Shown here piece by piece: positions 16,736 to 62,039 of a DNA stretch of 64,000 nt. The notes below the pieces were generated by a model. That model did not search any database. It was given only the letters and a program-made list of their open reading frames with translations, and was not told the DNA's origin. The DNA lies in IMG/VR virus record IMGVR_UViG_3300010885_020237, positions 1-64,000 of that record. One strand, given 5' to 3'. The position numbers were made by a program, and so were the translations under genes. Position 1 is the first letter of the stretch; each line of letters starts with the position of its first letter. The stretch comes from a virus.

Positions 16736-16808
16736 GTACTCCCTCAAGGATTCGAACCTCAACAAATTGTACCAAAAACAATTGTACTACCGTTATACTA
16801 AAGGAGTA
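16736..16808 (-). tRNA. tRNA-Gln(UUG)
   Basis: Cloverleaf: TACTCCT/GGGAGTA acceptor, ATTGT-TTTTGGT-ACAAT anticodon arm, GGTTCGAATCC T arm. Confidence 0.9.
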
Positions 16809-17000
16809 ATTTGACACTCTATTTTATCCAACTACAAGTGTCGTGGCTGTCCCTTTTCAGGTTAGGAATAATCATTCGACTTCTCGAGGTTCAGGCTGAT
16901 TTGCCCGGATATTACCACCTATCATATCCTAGGTACCCATACGGGCATCACCTCCGCTTCTCATCATATTGGGCATACTAGTCGGTGATTAATCGACTCG
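16809..17000 (-). ncRNA. unidentified structured GC-rich RNA between tRNA-like unit and tRNA-Gln
   Basis: Nested stems GAGGT/ACCTC, GCCCG/CGGGC, GGATAT/ATATCC; flanking hairpins AGTCG/CGACT and GACACT/AGTGTC; no ORF in the track. Confidence 0.45.
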
Positions 17001-17002
17001 TG

Positions 17003-17084
17003 TAGTCAGGACAGGATTTGAACCTGTAAGCTCCTTTTCGGGTAGGAACAACCTTATTGCGTCTACCAATTCCGCCACCTGACT
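17003..17084 (-). ncRNA. tRNA-like element 1 (Leu-type D arm, no canonical anticodon arm)
   Basis: AGTCAGG TG GCGGAATTGGTAGACGC ... ACAGG TTCAAAT CCTGT CCTGACT A. Confidence 0.75.
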
Positions 17085-17155
17085 ACGAAGACATCATTAG
17101 AATTTTGACCATTACATAGTTTCCTAAGTGTGAATATACTCCGTTGATGTCTTTG

Positions 17156-17230
17156 TAGTCAGGACAGGATTCGAACCTGTAATAGGCAACCATAAAGGAC
17201 TTGGAACCATTCCTCATTACGCTCCTGACT
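17156..17230 (-). ncRNA. tRNA-like element 2 (acceptor and T arm only, unrelated core)
   Basis: AGTCAGG AG...ACAGG TTCGAAT CCTGT CCTGACT A. Confidence 0.7.
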
Positions 17231-17323
17231 ATAAAACTCCACCCCGTAGGTGGAGAGAGCGAATTAAGGTATCGCTTTAAGACAATTTAGTCAACCAGTG
17301 CGCTTACCCTTTGGGTGGCGCTG

Positions 17324-17395
17324 TAGTCAAGACAGGATTCGAACCCGTATTACCACCGTGAAAGGGTGGTGACCTAACCCCTAGTCGATAGGCGC
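17324..17395 (-). pseudogene. chimeric tRNA-Glu(UUC) with non-pairing 3' acceptor strand
   Basis: GCGCCTA...CCACC-CTTTCAC-GGTGG...ACGGG TTCGAAT CCTGT CTTGACT A. The 3' strand is of the AGTCAGG-family type and cannot pair with GCGCCTA. Confidence 0.75.
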
Positions 17396-17782
17396 TGGAG
17401 GAGATGCGGGGATTCGAACCCCGGTCTCCGTAAGTAATCATAATACCCTTCTTACATGCTTAGTCATACTGTACACAGTGACAAGAGTTCGATCTGCAAG
17501 CTGATCAGTATTGGGGTCGTACGGCTACGTACAACTAGGCCACCACTTGGTTTAAGTCCAAGAACTATTTTTGTAACTTACTGTTCCATCCAAGTTACCA
17601 GGAGAAGAAATCTTAAGCTGCTACAGCCATTTCTACATTGGCAAAAGCCATGTTGATAATGCGTGCACCTTCTTCTTGACGAGAAATTGTATTGTCGTTT
17701 ATTTTTTTAGGAGTGGTTTGACGCTCCCACGTCTTGCATGTGATACTACCATTCTCATACGGATCAAATGCCTGTCATCCCC
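17396..17782 (-). ncRNA. ssrA: tmRNA
   Basis: 5' GGGGATG pairs with 3' CATCTCC (G3:U), T arm GGGTTCGAATCCC, encoded CCA; tag ORF 17696-17613 DNTISRQEEGARIINMAFANVEMAVAA*. Confidence 0.93.
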
Positions 17783-32217: not shown

Positions 32218-32883
32218 TTAGGTGTAGTTCCATTTATATCCTCCTGATATTCTATTGTTTTTGATAGCCACGTGAATATTAGAATTGTTTACACCGATAA
32301 AATCTGCAGCTTTTTTTAGCGATTGAAATGTACTAATTATCTCCATCGTATCTTTATTAAGCATATTCACACTTTTTATATTATGAGCAAGTTTTCCGAC
32401 TTTAGATTCTCTTAATCTTCTTATACCGTCTTCTGTCATATTATGAGGTTTTCTTAGTTTCTGTTTTTGTTCCTCTGTTCTTTTTTGACCTTTAACAGCT
32501 AAGCCTACTTTTGCAGCATGTTCTTTACTTTTTTTCTTTCCTTTTAACGCTTTAGATATTGCTTTAGAGTGAGCTAGTCTGGCTTCTTCATAACATCTTG
32601 AAGATATTATAATCCAATGTTCTTTAGGCGTTGATCCTCTACCATTACACATTCTCCAAAAAGAAAAAGCTCTAGATTGAATATTTTCATCTAATCTATA
32701 TAAAAGCCAATGCGCAATAAAATGCTCTCTTGCTGTTAATCTAACTATATTTTCTTCAATATCTAACCCATTTTCTGATTTAGGCTTTATATGATGCCTT
32801 TCGAAGTAAGGTAAAGTTTTATATTCTCTATTTTTAGCTTTATCAATTAGGTTATCGTAATGTTTTCTGTAATCCACTTTCAT
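32218..32883 (-). CDS. free-standing HNH homing endonuclease with NUMOD-type C-terminus
   Basis: ERHHIKPKS..G....N.V.LTAREHFIAHWLL; F.SLKKAA..IG; SGGYKW. Confidence 0.88.
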   Translation of the reverse strand: MKVDYRKHYDNLIDKAKNREYKTLPYFERHHIKPKSENGLDIEENIVRLTAREHFIAHWLLYRLDENIQSRAFSFWRMCNGRGSTPKEHWIIISSRCYEEARLAHSKAISKALKGKKKSKEHAAKVGLAVKGQKRTEEQKQKLRKPHNMTEDGIRRLRESKVGKLAHNIKSVNMLNKDTMEIISTFQSLKKAADFIGVNNSNIHVAIKNNRISGGYKWNYT

Positions 32884-32918: not shown

Positions 32919-35231
32919 CTAATGTCCTTCAAGCCAGTTTTTGGCTAAAGATGGTACAGCAATTAATGGGACGTCCAATTTGGTTGTATTCTCCATTTTA
33001 TCCTGTATAATAGCTGCGGCTTCTGCTGCTCTTTCATATTCTACTTCTATGATTAACTGATCGTGGATTTGCGCGCAGACCCAACCTTTAATGCCTTTTG
33101 CGATAAACTCTCTATTTATATGTATAGCTGCTCTATTTACTATAGATGCAGCTAAACCTTGTATTTGTACATTACAGCTATTATTTAGTCCATTTTTATA
33201 GTCTCTATATAATTTAGTTATTTGATCTTCTCCAAATTCATAAGATAGTTGTTTTTTTATATTCCAATCTAATAAAGAATCCCCTAATTCAGCATATATT
33301 TCTTTTACTTTAGGCAAGTGTCTTATTCTACCTACTTGAGTTTTTATATAACCAAATTCTTTTACATATTTAACTGAATTCTCCATCCATTTTTTTAATT
33401 TTGGAAATCCATTTAAATAACCGTCTACTAATTTTTTAGCATCTTTAGTAGGAATATCTAAATTTTTACCTAAAGCATACGGTGACATTCCATAAGGAAT
33501 ACCTAGAGCATAGGCTTTTGCTTTATTTCTAATTTTTGGTTTGTGTTTTCTTAAAAAATTATCAGCTTTTTTATCTGGAGAATAGTCGTATAATTTTTCT
33601 GTTTGAATAGCTATTGTACAATAGAAATCCCATCCATTTTTAAAGATATCGATTAATCCTATATCACCTGAGACATGTGCAAATACACTCGGCTCTAGAG
33701 AAGAGTAATCATCATCGACAAATATATTGTGTTCATCAGGAATAAAAAATGCTCTAACTCTATTATTATACTCTAATACAATTGGATCATCATCGCCTTC
33801 TTCTTTTGGTCTAGGTAACTGTTGAGCATCAGATCCGTAGCGGCCAGAAACTGTACCATGTTGTTTGTAACTAAAATAGTAACGGCCATCTTCTTGAGCG
33901 TCTAAGAATCTTTCCACATAAGTAGATTTAATCTTTAATAATTTATTATAGATTCTTAAGTTTCTTGCCCATTCTTCTGTATCTCCAATTAATTGGATCA
34001 TGTCATCATCAAATTGTGGCTTTCCACCTTTTGTAGTAGATAATGCTTTTATGCCCAAAGCTTTGAATGCAATTTCACCTAATTGATCTTTAGACTGTAT
34101 GTTAAACCAATTACCGTCATTAGATTCTTTCCATAGTTTTAATTGTATTTTTACAATTTGATCCTTATCAAGCATTTGAGCATCACCGTGAAGTAAGAAC
34201 TGTTTTACTGCGCTATCTGGGATTCTTAAAATATTTGCATTAGCTATATTGTACTTACCACTTTTCTCTGACTTTGGAAAGTCTATACCGCTTTGATTGA
34301 TTAATTCTATGGCAAATGTTCCTCTATTGTTTGCGGGGAATTCCTGCGCCGCTTTTAACATGATCCAGTTCTTTACTTCAGCGTAACTAAGTAACTGATC
34401 CATAACCTTAGTTCTGTGATCCTCTAGAGCTTGTGTAACTTCTTCTTTTGTTCTACGAATAAGATCCATATCCAATTTAACACCTATACTTTCCATTGGA
34501 ATGGTTACCTCTTTGTAAAGTGGCATTACTTCATCTTCAAAAAAGAAGGCTTCTAATCCCTGATCGTAAAGGTCTTTTATAAAGTGATTGTATACTCTAA
34601 GTGTTAAATCTGTATCTGCTGCAGCATATTCGGCTAATATGTTAATATCAGCTTTCCATATCTCGTAATTTTCTCTTGTAACAGAACCACCATTTTCTTT
34701 GATCGATGATTTTAGCGCAAGCTGCTCTTCATTGGCAGCTTTTTCTATATCAAGTCCAAGTTCTGTTTGAATCATTTTAGCAATACTTTTTAATCCAAAT
34801 GGAGAATTGGATCCAAATCCAGCTCCTTCTTCATTTACAGTATGAACTAATAACATTGTATCAGCGTGTAAGGAATCTAACAAATCAATGCCGTAAAAAC
34901 ACTTAATAAATCTGCCATCGAAAGAAAAATTATGAGCGATTAATTTTTTACCATGAAGTAAATTAAGTATTTTTTTAGCTATATCATGACATGATACGCC
35001 GTCTACAGTATTTTCTATAAGAGAATTTGATTCTTTATCATATAATAGTGTAGGCAAATAATATCCATAGCCCTCTATTGCTGATATAGACAGACCTATT
35101 ATTTTTCCTTTTCTAGGATTTAAACTGTTAGTTTCAGTGTCTATTGATATTATGTCATAACTTTTTATATGGTCAACTAGATTTTTGATATCTTCTTTTG
35201 TTGAAACATGTACATACTTTTTATTTATCAT
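32919..35231 (-). CDS. polA: family A DNA polymerase with 3'-5' exonuclease
   Basis: DTET, AHNFSFD, YAAAD; GTVSGR; motif A DYSSLE, motif B RNKAKAYALGIPYG, motif C QIHDQ. Confidence 0.95.
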   Translation of the reverse strand: MINKKYVHVSTKEDIKNLVDHIKSYDIISIDTETNSLNPRKGKIIGLSISAIEGYGYYLPTLLYDKESNSLIENTVDGVSCHDIAKKILNLLHGKKLIAHNFSFDGRFIKCFYGIDLLDSLHADTMLLVHTVNEEGAGFGSNSPFGLKSIAKMIQTELGLDIEKAANEEQLALKSSIKENGGSVTRENYEIWKADINILAEYAAADTDLTLRVYNHFIKDLYDQGLEAFFFEDEVMPLYKEVTIPMESIGVKLDMDLIRRTKEEVTQALEDHRTKVMDQLLSYAEVKNWIMLKAAQEFPANNRGTFAIELINQSGIDFPKSEKSGKYNIANANILRIPDSAVKQFLLHGDAQMLDKDQIVKIQLKLWKESNDGNWFNIQSKDQLGEIAFKALGIKALSTTKGGKPQFDDDMIQLIGDTEEWARNLRIYNKLLKIKSTYVERFLDAQEDGRYYFSYKQHGTVSGRYGSDAQQLPRPKEEGDDDPIVLEYNNRVRAFFIPDEHNIFVDDDYSSLEPSVFAHVSGDIGLIDIFKNGWDFYCTIAIQTEKLYDYSPDKKADNFLRKHKPKIRNKAKAYALGIPYGMSPYALGKNLDIPTKDAKKLVDGYLNGFPKLKKWMENSVKYVKEFGYIKTQVGRIRHLPKVKEIYAELGDSLLDWNIKKQLSYEFGEDQITKLYRDYKNGLNNSCNVQIQGLAASIVNRAAIHINREFIAKGIKGWVCAQIHDQLIIEVEYERAAEAAAIIQDKMENTTKLDVPLIAVPSLAKNWLEGH

Positions 35232-35865
35232 AAATGAATTTTACCTTTATTTTATTTTTATTCCACGTAGAAATTGTAGCTGACGATCTATTAAAAAATT
35301 CAGCTGCATCTTGTATAGTTAAGAAAACAGTGCCAGATTCTATACACAGTACTTTTTGCGCTCTACCATTAGAGGATCCTGATATCTTTTTGGATTGAGT
35401 GATCTTTCTTTCATTAGTCCATAAATCCTGAAATTTTTTCTTATAATCAGCTGTTGCATATTTTATTTTTAATTTATCGCCTAATTCACGAGCGATTTTT
35501 TTATCTTTCATAGGATTATGAAATCTCATAAATTGTGATTGTTCTGGTCTTTTTTTACCAAACATTATACATTTGTCTCCCGATCCAGATCCACTTGCTG
35601 ATGCACATTGCATTGAGTAATATGGCTTTTTAAAAAGTTTATCCAATAAAAGCTGCTCTTGTAAATACGCCTCTTCTCTAGTTGCATATTCATTTAATAT
35701 TTCGTATTCAAACATATTATATTTTAAATACGCTCTTTGCATTATAGAATTTCCATGTGTACCTTTAGTTAATTCTCGAAAATGATCTTTCATTCTCCTT
35801 TTTAAATTATTAGTAGATCCAATTTGTTTCCATGGACCTATTTTAATTTGATATACTACATTCAT
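35221..35865 (-). CDS. GIY-YIG-like homing endonuclease with NUMOD1/HTH C-terminus
   Basis: VVYQI...QIGST.NLKRR..H...L..G.H.N; VLCIESG.VF.TIQDAA. Start moved to MNVVY (35865) by analogy with the 43485 leader. Confidence 0.75.
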   Translation of the reverse strand: MNVVYQIKIGPWKQIGSTNNLKRRMKDHFRELTKGTHGNSIMQRAYLKYNMFEYEILNEYATREEAYLQEQLLLDKLFKKPYYSMQCASASGSGSGDKCIMFGKKRPEQSQFMRFHNPMKDKKIARELGDKLKIKYATADYKKKFQDLWTNERKITQSKKISGSSNGRAQKVLCIESGTVFLTIQDAAEFFNRSSATISTWNKNKIKVKFIYDK

Positions 35866-35969
35866 AAAATAAAAATGGTTCAAAAAAACAAAGGAGCTCT
35901 AACCTTCCTAAGTTTAAATGAACCAATAAGTTTATAACAGATAACTAGTTAGAGTAGTTTCTATCCATT
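35866..35969 (-). ncRNA. kissing-loop 5' leader RNA, copy A
   Basis: P1 GATA-GAA-ACTA[CTCTAAC]TAGT-TATC; P2 GGTTCA..AGGAAG[GTTAGAG]CTCCT..TGAACC; loops exactly complementary. Confidence 0.75.
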
Positions 35970-35984
35970 ATAAATATGCAATCT

Positions 35985-36173
35985 CTATTCTTTTTTACTG
36001 TATGGAAATAATTCGTTTAATTTATCCTGTCTTCTTTTACAACCGCAATCTTCTTCTCCTAGCGCTTTAGCTATTTTATCTGCTAATACATCTATTTTTA
36101 GCGCATGAGTTATTTTTGCGATAGTATCACCTAGACCTTTAGGTTCTAAATTATCTTCATCATTTTTTTTCAT
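35985..36173 (-). CDS. conserved small phage protein (GLGD/CGC motif)
   Basis: KGLGDTIAKIT...DCGCKRRQDKLN; probable start 36173. Confidence 0.7.
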   Translation of the reverse strand: MKKNDEDNLEPKGLGDTIAKITHALKIDVLADKIAKALGEEDCGCKRRQDKLNELFPYSKKE

Positions 36174-42924: not shown

Positions 42925-43485
42925 TTAATGTAATGCTTTATTTTTTCTTGAAGAAGGGTTTTTTTGCGGTCCTCTTGGGCCTCTCATTTTTTGCTTCGTT
43001 TCTTCTGTGTGAGCATTTCCTATATGCGCTTTAGACATATTTAATTTAGATTGTTCGGTATGAATTCTGCCTTTATGTTTTTCAGAAATTTTTAAACGAG
43101 TTTCTTTTGAACAAGGCGGATATTTTTTGCCTTTATTTCCGGAGCCGCTATTATTTCCTTTTGCTGATAGACGCATTTTATTTTTTGATTCGTTAGAAAA
43201 AATAAAATTAATCATGCCTTCTCCTCCGTCTGTAAGATTTACTAGAGAACCGGTTCCGATATTTTGTCTGCCTAGACTTTTAATAAGTTCGATTTCTATT
43301 ATTCCAGAATCTTCCCAAGACAAATCTTCATAAAGAATATCAATAAAATAGCCTACTTTATTAACTATATTATGCCAATGTACATTTCTATCAGCTCTTG
43401 AAAATGCTCTTTTTAAAGTTTTTCCTCTACCTATGTAGAAAATTTCATTTGTGTCTTTTCTTCTATGCTGATATATTATAGCCAT
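42925..43485 (-). CDS. GIY-YIG (LEM-3-like) homing endonuclease with NUMOD3 repeats
   Basis: IYQH...FYIGRG...RA, E..LI..LGR, LVNLTDGGEG, HTEETKQKM. Confidence 0.8.
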   Translation of the reverse strand: MAIIYQHRRKDTNEIFYIGRGKTLKRAFSRADRNVHWHNIVNKVGYFIDILYEDLSWEDSGIIEIELIKSLGRQNIGTGSLVNLTDGGEGMINFIFSNESKNKMRLSAKGNNSGSGNKGKKYPPCSKETRLKISEKHKGRIHTEQSKLNMSKAHIGNAHTEETKQKMRGPRGPQKNPSSRKNKALH

Positions 43486-43591
43486 AAAATAAAAAAGAAC
43501 TCAGAGGATTCAAAGATCGCGGAATGACCAATGTTTCGTGAGTTCAATAAATTTATTATAGATAGTTAATTCCGCTAACTTTCTATCCACA
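43486..43591 (-). ncRNA. kissing-loop 5' leader RNA, copy B
   Basis: P1 GATA-GAAA-GTTA[GCGGAAT]TAAC-TATC; P2 GAACTCA..GGTC[ATTCCGC]GATC..TGAGTTC; loops exactly complementary. Confidence 0.75.
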
Positions 43592-43610
43592 ATAAATATG
43601 TTCTCCATTC

Positions 43611-44432
43611 TTAAAATGAAAACAATTCATCGATTTTGGAATCGAGATCTGTTTTCGTCGTACTTAATGTGAATGGTTTCGCAGCTGGTGCTTCTTTCTC
43701 CCATGGTAAATCTCCAATAGGATCAGTTTTTACTACAACTGAATCAGCATTTTGCTTGATCTCTTCTTCAGGATTTAAGTGCGACATTAATGCGCTTTTC
43801 ATCTCTTCATAAGTGTAACGTTTAAACTGAGTCATTGGATCTGGTTGAGTAGTCAACCACTGTTTAACTTTTGCAGCATCATCAGATAGAGGAGTAATTT
43901 TAGTTCTTACTCTTACGCTAGACGTGTTGTACGATAAACCAGTCGTTTCTTTTCCTTGTACATCAATAGTGATATCACGACCTTCAATGGGATCTGTGAA
44001 ATCTCCTACGTCCTCATCTTCAGCTAATGCTAACAAATCCATGTAGACTTGTTTACCAAACCCCCATAAAAGAACGCCTTTGTCTTCTTCGCCTCTAACG
44101 ATAACTGGTACATAGATTCTCATCTTTGGTTCCAATTTTTTAGCTAGCTGCCAATCTTCTTTAACTGAAGACTTTCTTAGTCCTTGAGAAAACTCAACGA
44201 TAGGATCTTTTTCGCCATAATTTGACAAAGAGATCATGGTGTTTTTATTTCCAATTCCATAATGGAAATAAAGCTCCTTAAAAGGATTGCTTTTTGTGTA
44301 CATCGAAGGTACAATACGAACTAAATGTTTACCCACTGTTGGGCCCCAAAGCGTTTTTGCCAGTTCGCCTTTCTGGCCGCCTCTTGGATTTTGTAACGTA
44401 GCGAGTCTTTGCTTTAATGCAGATATATCCAT
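43611..44432 (-). CDS. gp32-like single-stranded DNA-binding protein
   Basis: VRIVP..PF.ELYFHY, DPIVEF, WGFGK.VY, DPIEGRD, acidic/aromatic tail IDELFSF. Confidence 0.85.
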   Translation of the reverse strand: MDISALKQRLATLQNPRGGQKGELAKTLWGPTVGKHLVRIVPSMYTKSNPFKELYFHYGIGNKNTMISLSNYGEKDPIVEFSQGLRKSSVKEDWQLAKKLEPKMRIYVPVIVRGEEDKGVLLWGFGKQVYMDLLALAEDEDVGDFTDPIEGRDITIDVQGKETTGLSYNTSSVRVRTKITPLSDDAAKVKQWLTTQPDPMTQFKRYTYEEMKSALMSHLNPEEEIKQNADSVVVKTDPIGDLPWEKEAPAAKPFTLSTTKTDLDSKIDELFSF

Positions 44433-44955: not shown

Positions 44956-46257
44956 TTAAAATGAATAATTAATGCCATACTTGTGTTTTACCACTAAGTT
45001 TTCTCCTTCCATTATTTCTTTTATTTTTATTAGAAGTTCTTTTCCATCTTGTATATCGAAGTCGAATAAGAAAGCATCATAGGTGATTAATACAAGCTTC
45101 GTCCTTAGCTTATTGTCATCAAGGTATTGGTTTATACGCTCTATTTTATCTACGTTGACCAGAGTCTCCATATTCTGCACCATGTAATTAAATAGCTTAA
45201 GCTTGTTCATCTCATTTGAGAATTTAAGAATGCTATTAGTAGGTAATGCGATTGCACCTTGTCTTTTGTAGGTTTCCCATAAATCAGTGATATAAGAGTC
45301 TAGTAACGCAAAAAACTTGATGTGAGTGTATTTTTTATTTACTCCTCCGTATAACTGTCTAAAAGTAATTGTTTTTGCCTCAACATATTCATTTTCAGTA
45401 AGGGTGTCTTTACCGAAGTATTGTTTACCAAGAAAGGTATGTATTGATTCTTTTCCCCAATCGTAACCAATTAATGTTCCAATTAATCTTAAGTGATAAG
45501 CTTCAAAATCGAATTCTACAAAATAGGTATTTTTCGGTATAAAGCAGTCTCTAAAATCATTATCTTTTGGTATCGCAAGGAAATTAATGCTATTAAATGA
45601 ATTTGTTGGTCGACCAGTTAGATTATAAAGATTATAATAAGAATAGATAAGATCATTAATTTTAGAACTTGATTCTATGGTTAATTGGTATTTAGTTTTA
45701 AATTTTACCTCATCAATTCTTATTGGATTCTGCTCTACACTTTTATAAGCTGATACCAATCTATTTTGAAATTTAGTGTCTGACTCTAAACCAAAAAATG
45801 CTTTAACAATATCATATAAACATTGGCATCTTTCGTAATGTTTAGATATTGGTATTATCTCATTTACATTTGCTAGATTAGAAAATCTAGAGTAGTAATT
45901 GTGTTGTAATAAGCTTTCACATTCGAATGGACTATAGTTATTGGTTTGATCTAAATAGATAAAATTTATATCTATACTATTAGGCAGGTCTAAAAAATAG
46001 GAGTGATACTTTTTATCTATTAAGAATATGGTCTTATGTTTAGATAAGAACTGTTCTACCGACTTTATATCGAGAGAAAAAGATTCAGAGTGTTTGAAAG
46101 GGAATATATAGCCTTTTACACCGTTATTATAATATAATAGGCTGGGATATGATAGTTTTGGGTGGAATTTATCATTACCTGAAATCAATTGTACAAAGCA
46201 TTCTTCGCCTGCTTGCATTTGATTTAACTGATCTAACGTTTCTACTATAAAATACAT
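44956..46257 (-). CDS. second, truncated family A DNA polymerase-like protein
   Basis: TGRPTN, motif A EFDFEAYHLR, motif B AKTITFRQLYG, motif C ITYDAFLFD. Confidence 0.75.
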   Translation of the reverse strand: MYFIVETLDQLNQMQAGEECFVQLISGNDKFHPKLSYPSLLYYNNGVKGYIFPFKHSESFSLDIKSVEQFLSKHKTIFLIDKKYHSYFLDLPNSIDINFIYLDQTNNYSPFECESLLQHNYYSRFSNLANVNEIIPISKHYERCQCLYDIVKAFFGLESDTKFQNRLVSAYKSVEQNPIRIDEVKFKTKYQLTIESSSKINDLIYSYYNLYNLTGRPTNSFNSINFLAIPKDNDFRDCFIPKNTYFVEFDFEAYHLRLIGTLIGYDWGKESIHTFLGKQYFGKDTLTENEYVEAKTITFRQLYGGVNKKYTHIKFFALLDSYITDLWETYKRQGAIALPTNSILKFSNEMNKLKLFNYMVQNMETLVNVDKIERINQYLDDNKLRTKLVLITYDAFLFDFDIQDGKELLIKIKEIMEGENLVVKHKYGINYSF

Positions 46258-57343: not shown

Positions 57344-57922
57344 CTAGTTTATTTGTGTTTTTAATAATTTCGTTACGTAAGCTTTAGATTTATTTAAATA
57401 TTTTGCTAAAGCCGTCTGTGATTCAAATTCAATTTTGTCGTATACAACCTTTAATCTTTTTGGACTAGCTTTATCTTTCCAATATCCTGGTTTTCCATAA
57501 AGAGGATTTAATTCTCCAACTCTACCAAAACAAGGATTTTTTTCTCCTTTAGAAGCCAAACTCTTTTTTCTTTTTGACTCTTCAGTGTGAATTTGATTTT
57601 TAGCGGCTAATCTACATTTGTCTTTAGTTTCTTTTGTGTGTCTAAATCCAACTGTTCCTTCTCCACCATCAGTCAAATTAACCAATGTTCCAAGTCGTAA
57701 ATCTCGTCTACCGTAAAGAGCTATAAATTCTTTTTCTTTTTCTTTTGCTTGTTCCCAAGTTAAGTCTTCAAATAGAATTTCAATTTCGTAACCTTTTGCG
57801 GCGATATTCTTCCAGATTCTAGTTCGATTTGTTTTATGATATGCTCTAGATTCGCTTTCTCCTATTCCTATATAAAAAACCTCTTGTTTGTCCGTTCTTA
57901 TGTGTCTGTATAATATTGCCAA
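57344..57922 (-). CDS. GIY-YIG (LEM-3-like) homing endonuclease, paralogue of 42925..43485
   Basis: LYRH...FYIGIG...RA, YGRRDL..GTLVNLTDGGEG, HTKETK; TTG start. Confidence 0.8.
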   Translation of the reverse strand: MAILYRHIRTDKQEVFYIGIGESESRAYHKTNRTRIWKNIAAKGYEIEILFEDLTWEQAKEKEKEFIALYGRRDLRLGTLVNLTDGGEGTVGFRHTKETKDKCRLAAKNQIHTEESKRKKSLASKGEKNPCFGRVGELNPLYGKPGYWKDKASPKRLKVVYDKIEFESQTALAKYLNKSKAYVTKLLKTQIN

Positions 57923-61947: not shown

Positions 61948-62039
61948 AATTTTTGTTTTTATTTGTTTGATATATATAAATATATGAAAAAAGATTTGAG
62001 AATAAAAATTTATTTTATTTGTGACTCAAATTATTTATT

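Follow-up and report, generated by a model that had tools for sequence, protein, structure and literature searches.

Genome context and anatomy of the leader

The window analysed here is a stretch of 64,000 nucleotides (positions 1 to 64,000 of IMG/VR record IMGVR_UViG_3300010885_020237), and all positions refer to it unless another contig is named. On its minus strand, the stop codon of a gp32-like gene is followed by an 11-nt spacer, a promoter-like box, two hairpins separated by a short joint, a T-run and the ATG of a homing endonuclease gene (HEG), downstream of which lies a RecA/UvsX-like gene. This leader is called copy B below and comprises the following features.

43611..44432, minus strand: gene for a gp32-like single-strand DNA-binding protein, the upstream neighbour (Pfam gp32)
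43483..43610, minus strand: copy B region, from the promoter-like box to the ATG (sequence reading)
43592..43599, minus strand: promoter-like box ATATTTAT, also the first part of the 5' strand of the hairpin 1 lower stem
43551..43597, minus strand: hairpin 1 (P2), from MFE folds
43569..43575, minus strand: loop 1, GCGGAAT, the exact reverse complement of loop 2
43546..43550, minus strand: unpaired, highly conserved joint that connects the two hairpins, consensus ACTTATT region (column identity of 85% or more across 29 distinct copies)
43497..43545, minus strand: hairpin 2 (P3), from MFE folds
43519..43525, minus strand: loop 2, ATTCCGC, pairing with loop 1
43486..43496, minus strand: U-rich tract, filling the interval between hairpin 2 and the ATG without a gap (family-wide conservation)
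43485..43483, minus strand: ATG of HEG B
42925..43485, minus strand: HEG B, 186 amino acids, with a GIY-YIG-type N-terminus and NUMOD3 (Pfam NUMOD3, 1.2e-07; phrog_314 'homing endonuclease', 5.9e-19)

In the MFE folds hairpin 1, GATA-GAAA-GTTA[GCGGAAT]TAAC-TATC, has a lower stem of 14 bp (43597..43584 with 43564..43551), a GAAA bulge (43583..43580), an upper stem GTTA/TAAC and a 7-nt loop. Hairpin 2 rises from a 7-bp base (43545..43539 with 43503..43497) through a 6-bp middle helix and an upper stem GGTC/GATC to a 7-nt loop of its own. The two arms are thus near-equal in length (18 and 17 bp, with bulges in addition). The hairpin 2 base, which is GAACTCA/TGAGTTC here and of the GGNCC type elsewhere, is followed directly by TTTTTTATTTT.

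The elements that the first-pass annotation had listed for copy B, namely both hairpins, the loops, the T-run and the ATG, are all correct and lie on the minus strand. The stretch that it called a 15-nt linker is present, but most of it is the 3' strand of the 14-bp lower stem, the 5' strand of which is the box. Folding adds this lower stem and the covarying 6-bp middle helix of hairpin 2 to the earlier picture. Once the lower stem has formed, the arms are connected by just 5 nt, and we infer that a loop bridge of 4+7+4 bp would close a rigid ring whose hinges would be the GAAA bulge and the internal loops.

Several other structures were considered and set aside. An outer closing helix, in which the purine-rich flank upstream pairs with the U tract, appears in the MFE folds of both window copies; the flanks are not conserved, and in the one case of identical modules (see below) identity begins at the box. 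In short transcripts about half of the MFE folds pair AUAAUAAA with the U tract, but this alternative helix lacks covariation support, since in copy A the A-rich strand has changed along with the box and the U tract has not. A three-way junction resembling the purine riboswitch would have a conserved closing P1 and conserved loop nucleotides, and neither is found in this family with its 16 loop sequences. Small ORFs within the leader (7 codons in copy A, 26 in copy B) are not conserved.

The name 'LEM-3-like' had been given to HEG B and should be dropped. At E<=0.01 Pfam returns only NUMOD3, PHROGs returns 'homing endonuclease', and the LEM-3_GIY-YIG match belongs to a different leader-linked HEG (locus L223).

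Copy A and the leaderless paralogue

The second leader of the window and its gene are as follows.

35863..35988, minus strand: copy A of the leader (covariance model, 66 bits, E 1.6e-13)
35221..35865, minus strand: GIY-YIG HEG A, downstream of copy A

Copy B was correctly recognized as a second copy of this element. The loops of copy A are CTCTAAC (35954..35948) and GTTAGAG (35903..35897); five of the seven loop positions differ between the copies and complementarity is retained. As had also been noted, the top of hairpin 1 covaries between them (ACTA/TAGT in A, GTTA/TAAC in B), and so does the base of hairpin 2. The HEG A and HEG B proteins show no significant pairwise similarity, whereas their leaders align end to end.

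A paralogue at 57344..57922, with 47% identity to HEG B over 121 amino acids, has the box and lacks the hairpins, as does an HNH gene at 32218..32883. The proposal that the leader is an optional, separable module is upheld by this paralogue, by the loci of HEG B relatives that were fetched (5 of 57 carry a leader) and by the occurrence of an identical leader before two unrelated HEGs.

The last 11 nt of HEG A are also the first 11 nt of the PolA gene (32919..35231), an overlap at 35221..35231 by which translation of PolA may have become coupled to translation of the inserted nuclease. Besides this full-length PolA, a 433 amino acid ORF (44956..46257, minus strand) has a partial DNA_pol_A match (E 4.6e-06) that falls below the gathering score. 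The phage also encodes a tmRNA (68.8 bits), which lies adjacent to three tRNA-model matches at 16737..17782 on the minus strand.

Covariation and loop pairing

The first-pass annotation had proposed a structured RNA leader with a covarying loop–loop (kissing) pairing, and the fold, the 16 complementary loop pairs and the covariation of the stems bear this out. In a 29-sequence alignment that was itself fitted to the covariance model, 91.6% of cells form standard pairs, compared with 78.9% in shuffles and 28–50% when the partners are slid. In the same model-fitted alignment 23 of 35 pairs have changed on both sides, and none of 500 shuffles reaches the observed values. Within hairpin 2 the both-side changes affect all seven pairs of the base, five of six in the middle helix and all four of the upper stem. 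The upper stem of hairpin 1 is paired in 100% of cells, with all four pairs changed on both sides, and its lower stem in 90.8%.

The lower stem deserves further attention. Both of its strands are nearly invariant across the family, and its pairing is kept through a double change in copy A and through several A-to-G changes that give G-U. The near-invariance is what would be expected if one strand were constrained as a promoter and the other by pairing.

Since Infernal cannot model pairing between loops, this pairing was checked apart from the covariance model. In 29 of 29 rows the top of hairpin 2 contains the reverse complement of the hairpin 1 loop, taken where the model places it. In an unanchored 7-mer test, hairpins 1 and 2 of the same copy shared a reverse complement in 46 of the 47 distinct copies that were parsed; the controls gave 110/1980 (5.6%) between copies of other codes and 424/9400 (4.5%) with hairpin 2 shuffled. 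For the copies outside the parse or match of this test, loop complementarity was confirmed by eye. In total, the family holds 16 different loop pairs, each complementary within its own copy. The loops average 50% G+C, and the whole elements 30%.

For copy B the covariance model scores 137 bits on the coding strand and 44 bits on the opposite strand. The nested helices contain 842 Watson-Crick, 44 G-U and 9 A-C cells, which are not phylogenetically independent of one another. Since such an asymmetry of G-U over A-C is not expected from a DNA palindrome or from an RNA of the opposite strand, there is strong support, though not in the form of a formal probability, that the fold is that of RNA of the coding strand.

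The promoter-like box

In the 93.7-kb genome ATATTTAT(A/T) occurs 24 times on the coding strand and four times on the other. The coding-strand boxes usually lie 3–35 nt upstream of ORF starts and are found in both the replication and the structural gene blocks; examples on the minus strand are at window positions 61983, 56776, 44944, 39385, 22321, 19305 and 1618. Elsewhere, a canonical terminator ends 1–10 nt before the box in 6 of 51 leader copies, at four or more loci, and the HEG there could therefore hardly be expressed except from the box. Based upon the strand bias, the position upstream of ORFs and the terminators just before it, the box is probably the phage's own promoter element.

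Four genes share a spacing of box, 3 nt and ATG, which suggests that their messages are leaderless or near-leaderless. By analogy with these closely spaced genes, the predicted transcription start of the leader lies approximately at the base with which upper hairpin 1 begins. RNA from the box promoter would then start inside the lower stem, which requires RNA that starts upstream of the box. The retained pairing of that stem suggests that read-through RNA containing the box also matters. A sigma-70 scan found no site in 43483..43612. The TATAAT within the lower stem was considered as part of a sigma-70 promoter and rejected, as there was no usable -35 on reading the sequence and no match in the scan.

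Family size and distribution

Copy B belongs to a real, uncatalogued family of folded RNA leaders in uncultured freshwater phages. About 50 distinct complete leader sequences were collected from phage and metagenome contigs. Relatives were gathered by searches with the two HEG proteins and then by a two-box DNA pattern, and the covariance model was built from ten B-type copies. A first, exact pattern gave no viral-contig matches and a looser one matched mostly AT-rich giant-virus DNA by chance; the two-box pattern worked. The model recovers both window copies and 29 distinct copies in IMG/VR contigs, and metagenome contigs from JGI, ENA and TARA gave another 43 matches. This census is a lower bound, since the pattern scans were anchored on the box and lower stem and are biased to copies that keep that consensus.

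There was no leader match in the genomes of prokaryotes (one each for 185,579 species), which therefore offer no prophage or host clue. The start regions of these phages have no Shine-Dalgarno sequence and are A-rich, as in Bacteroidota hosts. When the window was compared with Rfam 15 by cmscan at the gathering threshold, only the tmRNA and tRNAs were reported, and at E<=10 the region gave chance-level matches only, the best being a Listeria sRNA on the opposite strand (E 0.079). In the literature we did not find a description of a HEG-associated kissing-loop RNA. Four public DNA runs yielded pieces of the contig, strain variants and one foreign contig that matched the leader alone; no joint that skips the cassette was found among them.

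Homing endonucleases and insertion sites

A survey of the endonuclease families that carry the leader had been recommended, and it revealed HNH and GIY-YIG HEGs of several kinds. All 30 translated ORFs behind the viral-contig copies are HEG-like (HNH, HNH_3, GIY-YIG or NUMOD proteins). These 30 HEGs are of several unrelated kinds, namely HNH, HNH_3, GIY-YIG and LEM-3-type GIY-YIG, with tails of NUMOD1/3 or I-HmuI-like DNA-binding type. All complete copies end at the ATG.

One 169-kb ENA metagenome contig carries two leaders (L324:43-168 and L340:8810-8935) that are 100% identical from one base before the box through the ATG. The gene that follows is of HNH type in one case and of GIY-YIG type in the other, and the flanking sequences are unrelated. 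This pair represents a recent copy or exchange of the leader alone. Box and ATG mark the exact limits of the module, which is exchanged among HEG families and insertion sites.

At the copy B site, leader and HEG are both absent from 78 of 80 relatives of the gp32-like gene. Since the HEG-less relatives lack both, leader and HEG form an inserted cassette at this site. The HEG-less alleles that were read have a compact G+C-rich terminator between the gp32-like and RecA/UvsX-like genes, and homology resumes about 10 nt before the UvsX ATG. In HEG-less gp32 loci (L240, L243, L248 and others) the terminator lies about 15 nt before the UvsX ATG and the box is absent; expression of UvsX there seems to depend on read-through of the terminator. 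The rule that the cassette always replaces a terminator holds at the gp32/UvsX site and fails at the copy A site, where HEG-less relatives have just 5–15 nt between a small ORF and PolA.

Two further copies (L348:239-365 and L344:1943-2068) share the upstream flank and terminator but have leaders of different types and codes, which indicates cassette replacement at one site. Decaying cassettes were also encountered (L234:3286-3383 and L233:4425-4551, both on the minus strand). In one decaying copy the top of hairpin 1 is lost and a 96 amino acid HNH remnant follows, and in another an intact leader precedes a 40 amino acid stump. The upstream stop codon ends exactly 8 nt before TATTTAT in five different upstream gene families, among them chaperonin-like and dUTPase-like genes. 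Overall, the leader is most likely a portable expression module of HEG cassettes in a clade of uncultured freshwater myovirus-like phages.

Proposed function

We propose, with a probability of roughly 0.6, that the leader would act in cis, after transcription has started, to keep nuclease output low. This is favoured because the leader is specific to HEGs, is long and folded, ends in a uniquely U-rich start region and has a terminator-like form in hairpin 2 and the U tract. It is about 105 nt long and tightly folded, and the other box-driven genes (about 20) have short, plain A-rich leaders. Among 82 ORF starts in the genome, that of HEG B is the sole one in which T makes up 75% or more of -14..-1; on average, genome-wide, these positions hold 50% A, 31% T and about 10% G. 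We infer that the box acts as a promoter, and likewise in which direction and at which step expression is affected; the effect could be stabilising rather than negative.

The RNA folds into two arms of about 18 bp, which the 7-bp helix between the loops clamps together. The clamped hairpin 2, with its G+C-rich base, adjoins the unusually U-rich tract that ends at the AUG. There are two ways in which this might reduce expression. Hairpin 2 and the U tract may form a leaky terminator or pause site, a suggestion that we make tentatively and at less than even odds. It is rather unlikely, taken by itself, that hairpin 2 and the U-rich, A-poor start region instead make a poor ribosome entry site. 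We place the clamped, leaky terminator slightly ahead of the poor ribosome entry site, and leave the rest of the odds to other roles in cis.

As regards termination, hairpin 2 has the G+C-rich stem followed by a U tract that is typical of rho-independent terminators. It is an irregular hairpin of 49 nt that a simple terminator scan does not flag, and the canonical terminators of related phages are compact hairpins of 6–9 bp. The RecA/UvsX-like gene after HEG B and the PolA gene have no box of their own. With essential genes lying downstream without a box, termination cannot be efficient and must therefore be leaky.

As regards translation, initiation in Flavobacterium johnsoniae is tuned by mRNA structure, with an unstructured start region, and by an A at -3 (PMC6847099). 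In the leader copies that were read, -3 is U. Masking of the start region is argued against by nested folding, in which positions -14..+6 have a mean unpaired probability of 0.40 when the transcript is long, 0.43 when it is short and 0.56 when the tail is taken by itself. There is a precedent for low expression in the HEGs of T-even phages, which are held down by leader RNA structures and by termination (PMC2988022).

Alternative explanations

A T4-type two-transcript switch is unlikely here. Read-through RNA with the full 14-bp stem would be silent, and RNA started at the box, without the 5' strand of that stem, would be translated late. The box does form the 5' strand of the lower stem, the stem has kept its pairing through the double change and the A-to-G changes described above, the start predicted from the genes with the box, 3 nt and ATG spacing falls at the first base of the upper hairpin, and the same logic is documented for I-TevI, I-TevII, I-TevIII, segB and Aeh1 mobE (PMC2988022). 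However, the start region is no more accessible in the short RNA than in the long one (0.43 vs 0.40, with the short RNA lower in 20 of 49 copies), and the AUG lies outside both hairpins, with no Shine-Dalgarno sequence to hide. The terminator just before the box in six copies would, moreover, leave few long transcripts.

We consider it quite improbable that the 5' hairpin and the clamped fold serve mainly to stabilise or process the message, either by protection from 5'-end-dependent RNases or as an RNase III-type site that uncouples the HEG from the upstream message. A predicted start at the first paired base of upper hairpin 1 would suit such a role, as would long, irregular double-stranded arms that begin right after the stop codon of the upstream gene (8 nt to TATTTAT in the five families). 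Restriction of the leader to HEGs would remain unexplained, since the 20 or so other genes driven by the box manage with short, plain leaders.

It is even more doubtful that the element works primarily at the level of DNA, as a shared patch of homology for cassette recombination or as a palindromic operator over the promoter. Identical leaders before different HEGs, the same flank with different leader types (L348 vs L344) and the near-invariance of both lower-stem strands would all be compatible with this, and PeSL motifs mediate such shuffling in T4-like phages (PMC2839356, PMC4122927). Compensatory changes in the 16 loop pairs and the hairpin 2 stems, however, are required neither for recombination nor for protein binding to duplex DNA, and the excess of G-U over A-C (44 vs 9) points to RNA of one strand. 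The shuffling is better read as a by-product of shared sequence.

Least probable of all is a role of the loop codes as addresses by which separate molecules pair. Leader RNAs that share a code would then form dimers or sense one another in trans, and cassettes with different codes in one genome would stay independent. Leader RNAs of the same code might meet when genomes co-infect, or when a terminated leader RNA encounters a nascent transcript, and so switch the nuclease on or off. If this were true, each cassette could sense whether its own kind is already present, and the leader would be the phage equivalent of the determinants of plasmid incompatibility. Six multi-copy phage lineages do have codes that differ among their copies, with six codes in six copies in one lineage, and the loops are enriched in G+C and never drift out of complementarity. 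The first-pass annotation had suggested that distinct codes prevent cross-pairing, and for this there is no statistical support: six draws from 16 codes would all differ by chance about a third of the time (~34%), and one contig holds two fully identical leaders. The same code is found at different loci and with different HEG families, proximity favours pairing within one molecule, and the loops vary no more than do the upper stem of hairpin 1 and the hairpin 2 stems. A link of the loop code to insertion locus or HEG family was likewise rejected, as codes recur across several of both and one locus carries several codes. Orthogonality of the loop codes is not supported, and the variation fits neutral compensatory drift together with shuffling of modules.

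Comparison with known systems

The closest parallels to a leader that throttles expression in cis are the leaders of T-even HEGs (I-TevI, I-TevII, I-TevIII, segB and Aeh1 mobE, together with seg43(25) of Aeromonas phage 25; PMC2988022). In both cases an RNA structure acting in cis lies directly 5' of phage HEGs of the GIY-YIG or HNH type, and the presumed purpose is low nuclease expression. The same position is occupied in all 30 ORFs of our survey, copy B adjoining 42925..43485. A short phage promoter within the 5' strand of the hairpin is also predicted here: the box is the 5' strand of the lower stem and is promoter-like in the genome, although the modelled accessibility of the start region does not set short transcripts apart from long ones. 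Masking of the start region as in I-TevI is not found, as the hairpins end 11–14 nt before the AUG; in this the leader resembles that of seg43(25), where the hairpin ends just upstream of an uncovered start region. Unlike the T-even leaders, it has two long arms joined by a covarying 7-bp helix between the loops, a U-rich start region with no Shine-Dalgarno sequence and a start codon that is not sequestered. It is furthermore one homologous module that is reused by many unrelated HEGs and loci, and it has no sequence similarity to those leaders.

PeSL cassettes of T4-like phages (PMC2839356, PMC4122927) are short, repeated motifs of promoter and stem-loop that lie between genes and serve as exchange points. 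The leader module is likewise a repeated promoter-like element and stem-loop at places where unrelated genes exchange, and six of its copies add a terminator just before the box. PeSLs, however, have a simple stem-loop and border small genes of various kinds in hyperplastic regions, whereas the module described here is HEG-specific, forms a 5' leader downstream of its putative promoter and displays RNA covariation that includes a pseudoknot-type pairing of loops. In place of the sigma-70-type early promoter of PeSLs, for which there is no site in 43483..43612, it has the box, a single short AT-rich element. In summary, the leader shares its logic with the T-even HEG leaders and PeSL cassettes, and not their architecture or sequence, the comparison with PeSLs being one of organization rather than with the PeSL consensus itself.

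Rho-independent terminators and attenuators also have a G+C-rich helix followed by 9–11 nt that are mostly U. The hairpin of the leader differs in its length of 49 nt, its two internal loops and its kissing partner, in a U tract that runs into the AUG, and in the dependence of essential downstream genes on read-through.

Loop–loop (kissing) interactions are known from the control RNAs ColE1 RNA I/RNA II, R1 CopA/CopT and pT181-type attenuation. Their loops of 6–7 nt are fully complementary and free to change if both sides change. The leader has such fully complementary loops as well, but both lie in one molecule, about 45 nt apart. In cobalamin riboswitches the L5-L13 kissing loop clamps the hairpin of the expression platform; in the leader, unlike these riboswitches, the loop sequences are not conserved.

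As selfish nucleases, homing endonucleases need sparing and timely expression. To our knowledge, what is understood of this control comes almost entirely from the T-even phages of E. coli, and least of all from hosts in which ribosomes ignore Shine-Dalgarno sequences. The leader is a module of about 115 nt that is defined by natural covariation and is common to unrelated nucleases, and with 16 natural pairs its loop contact is reprogrammable. It is a candidate for a portable, tunable expression part for Bacteroidota, and it provides a marker for mobile nuclease cassettes in phage metagenomes.
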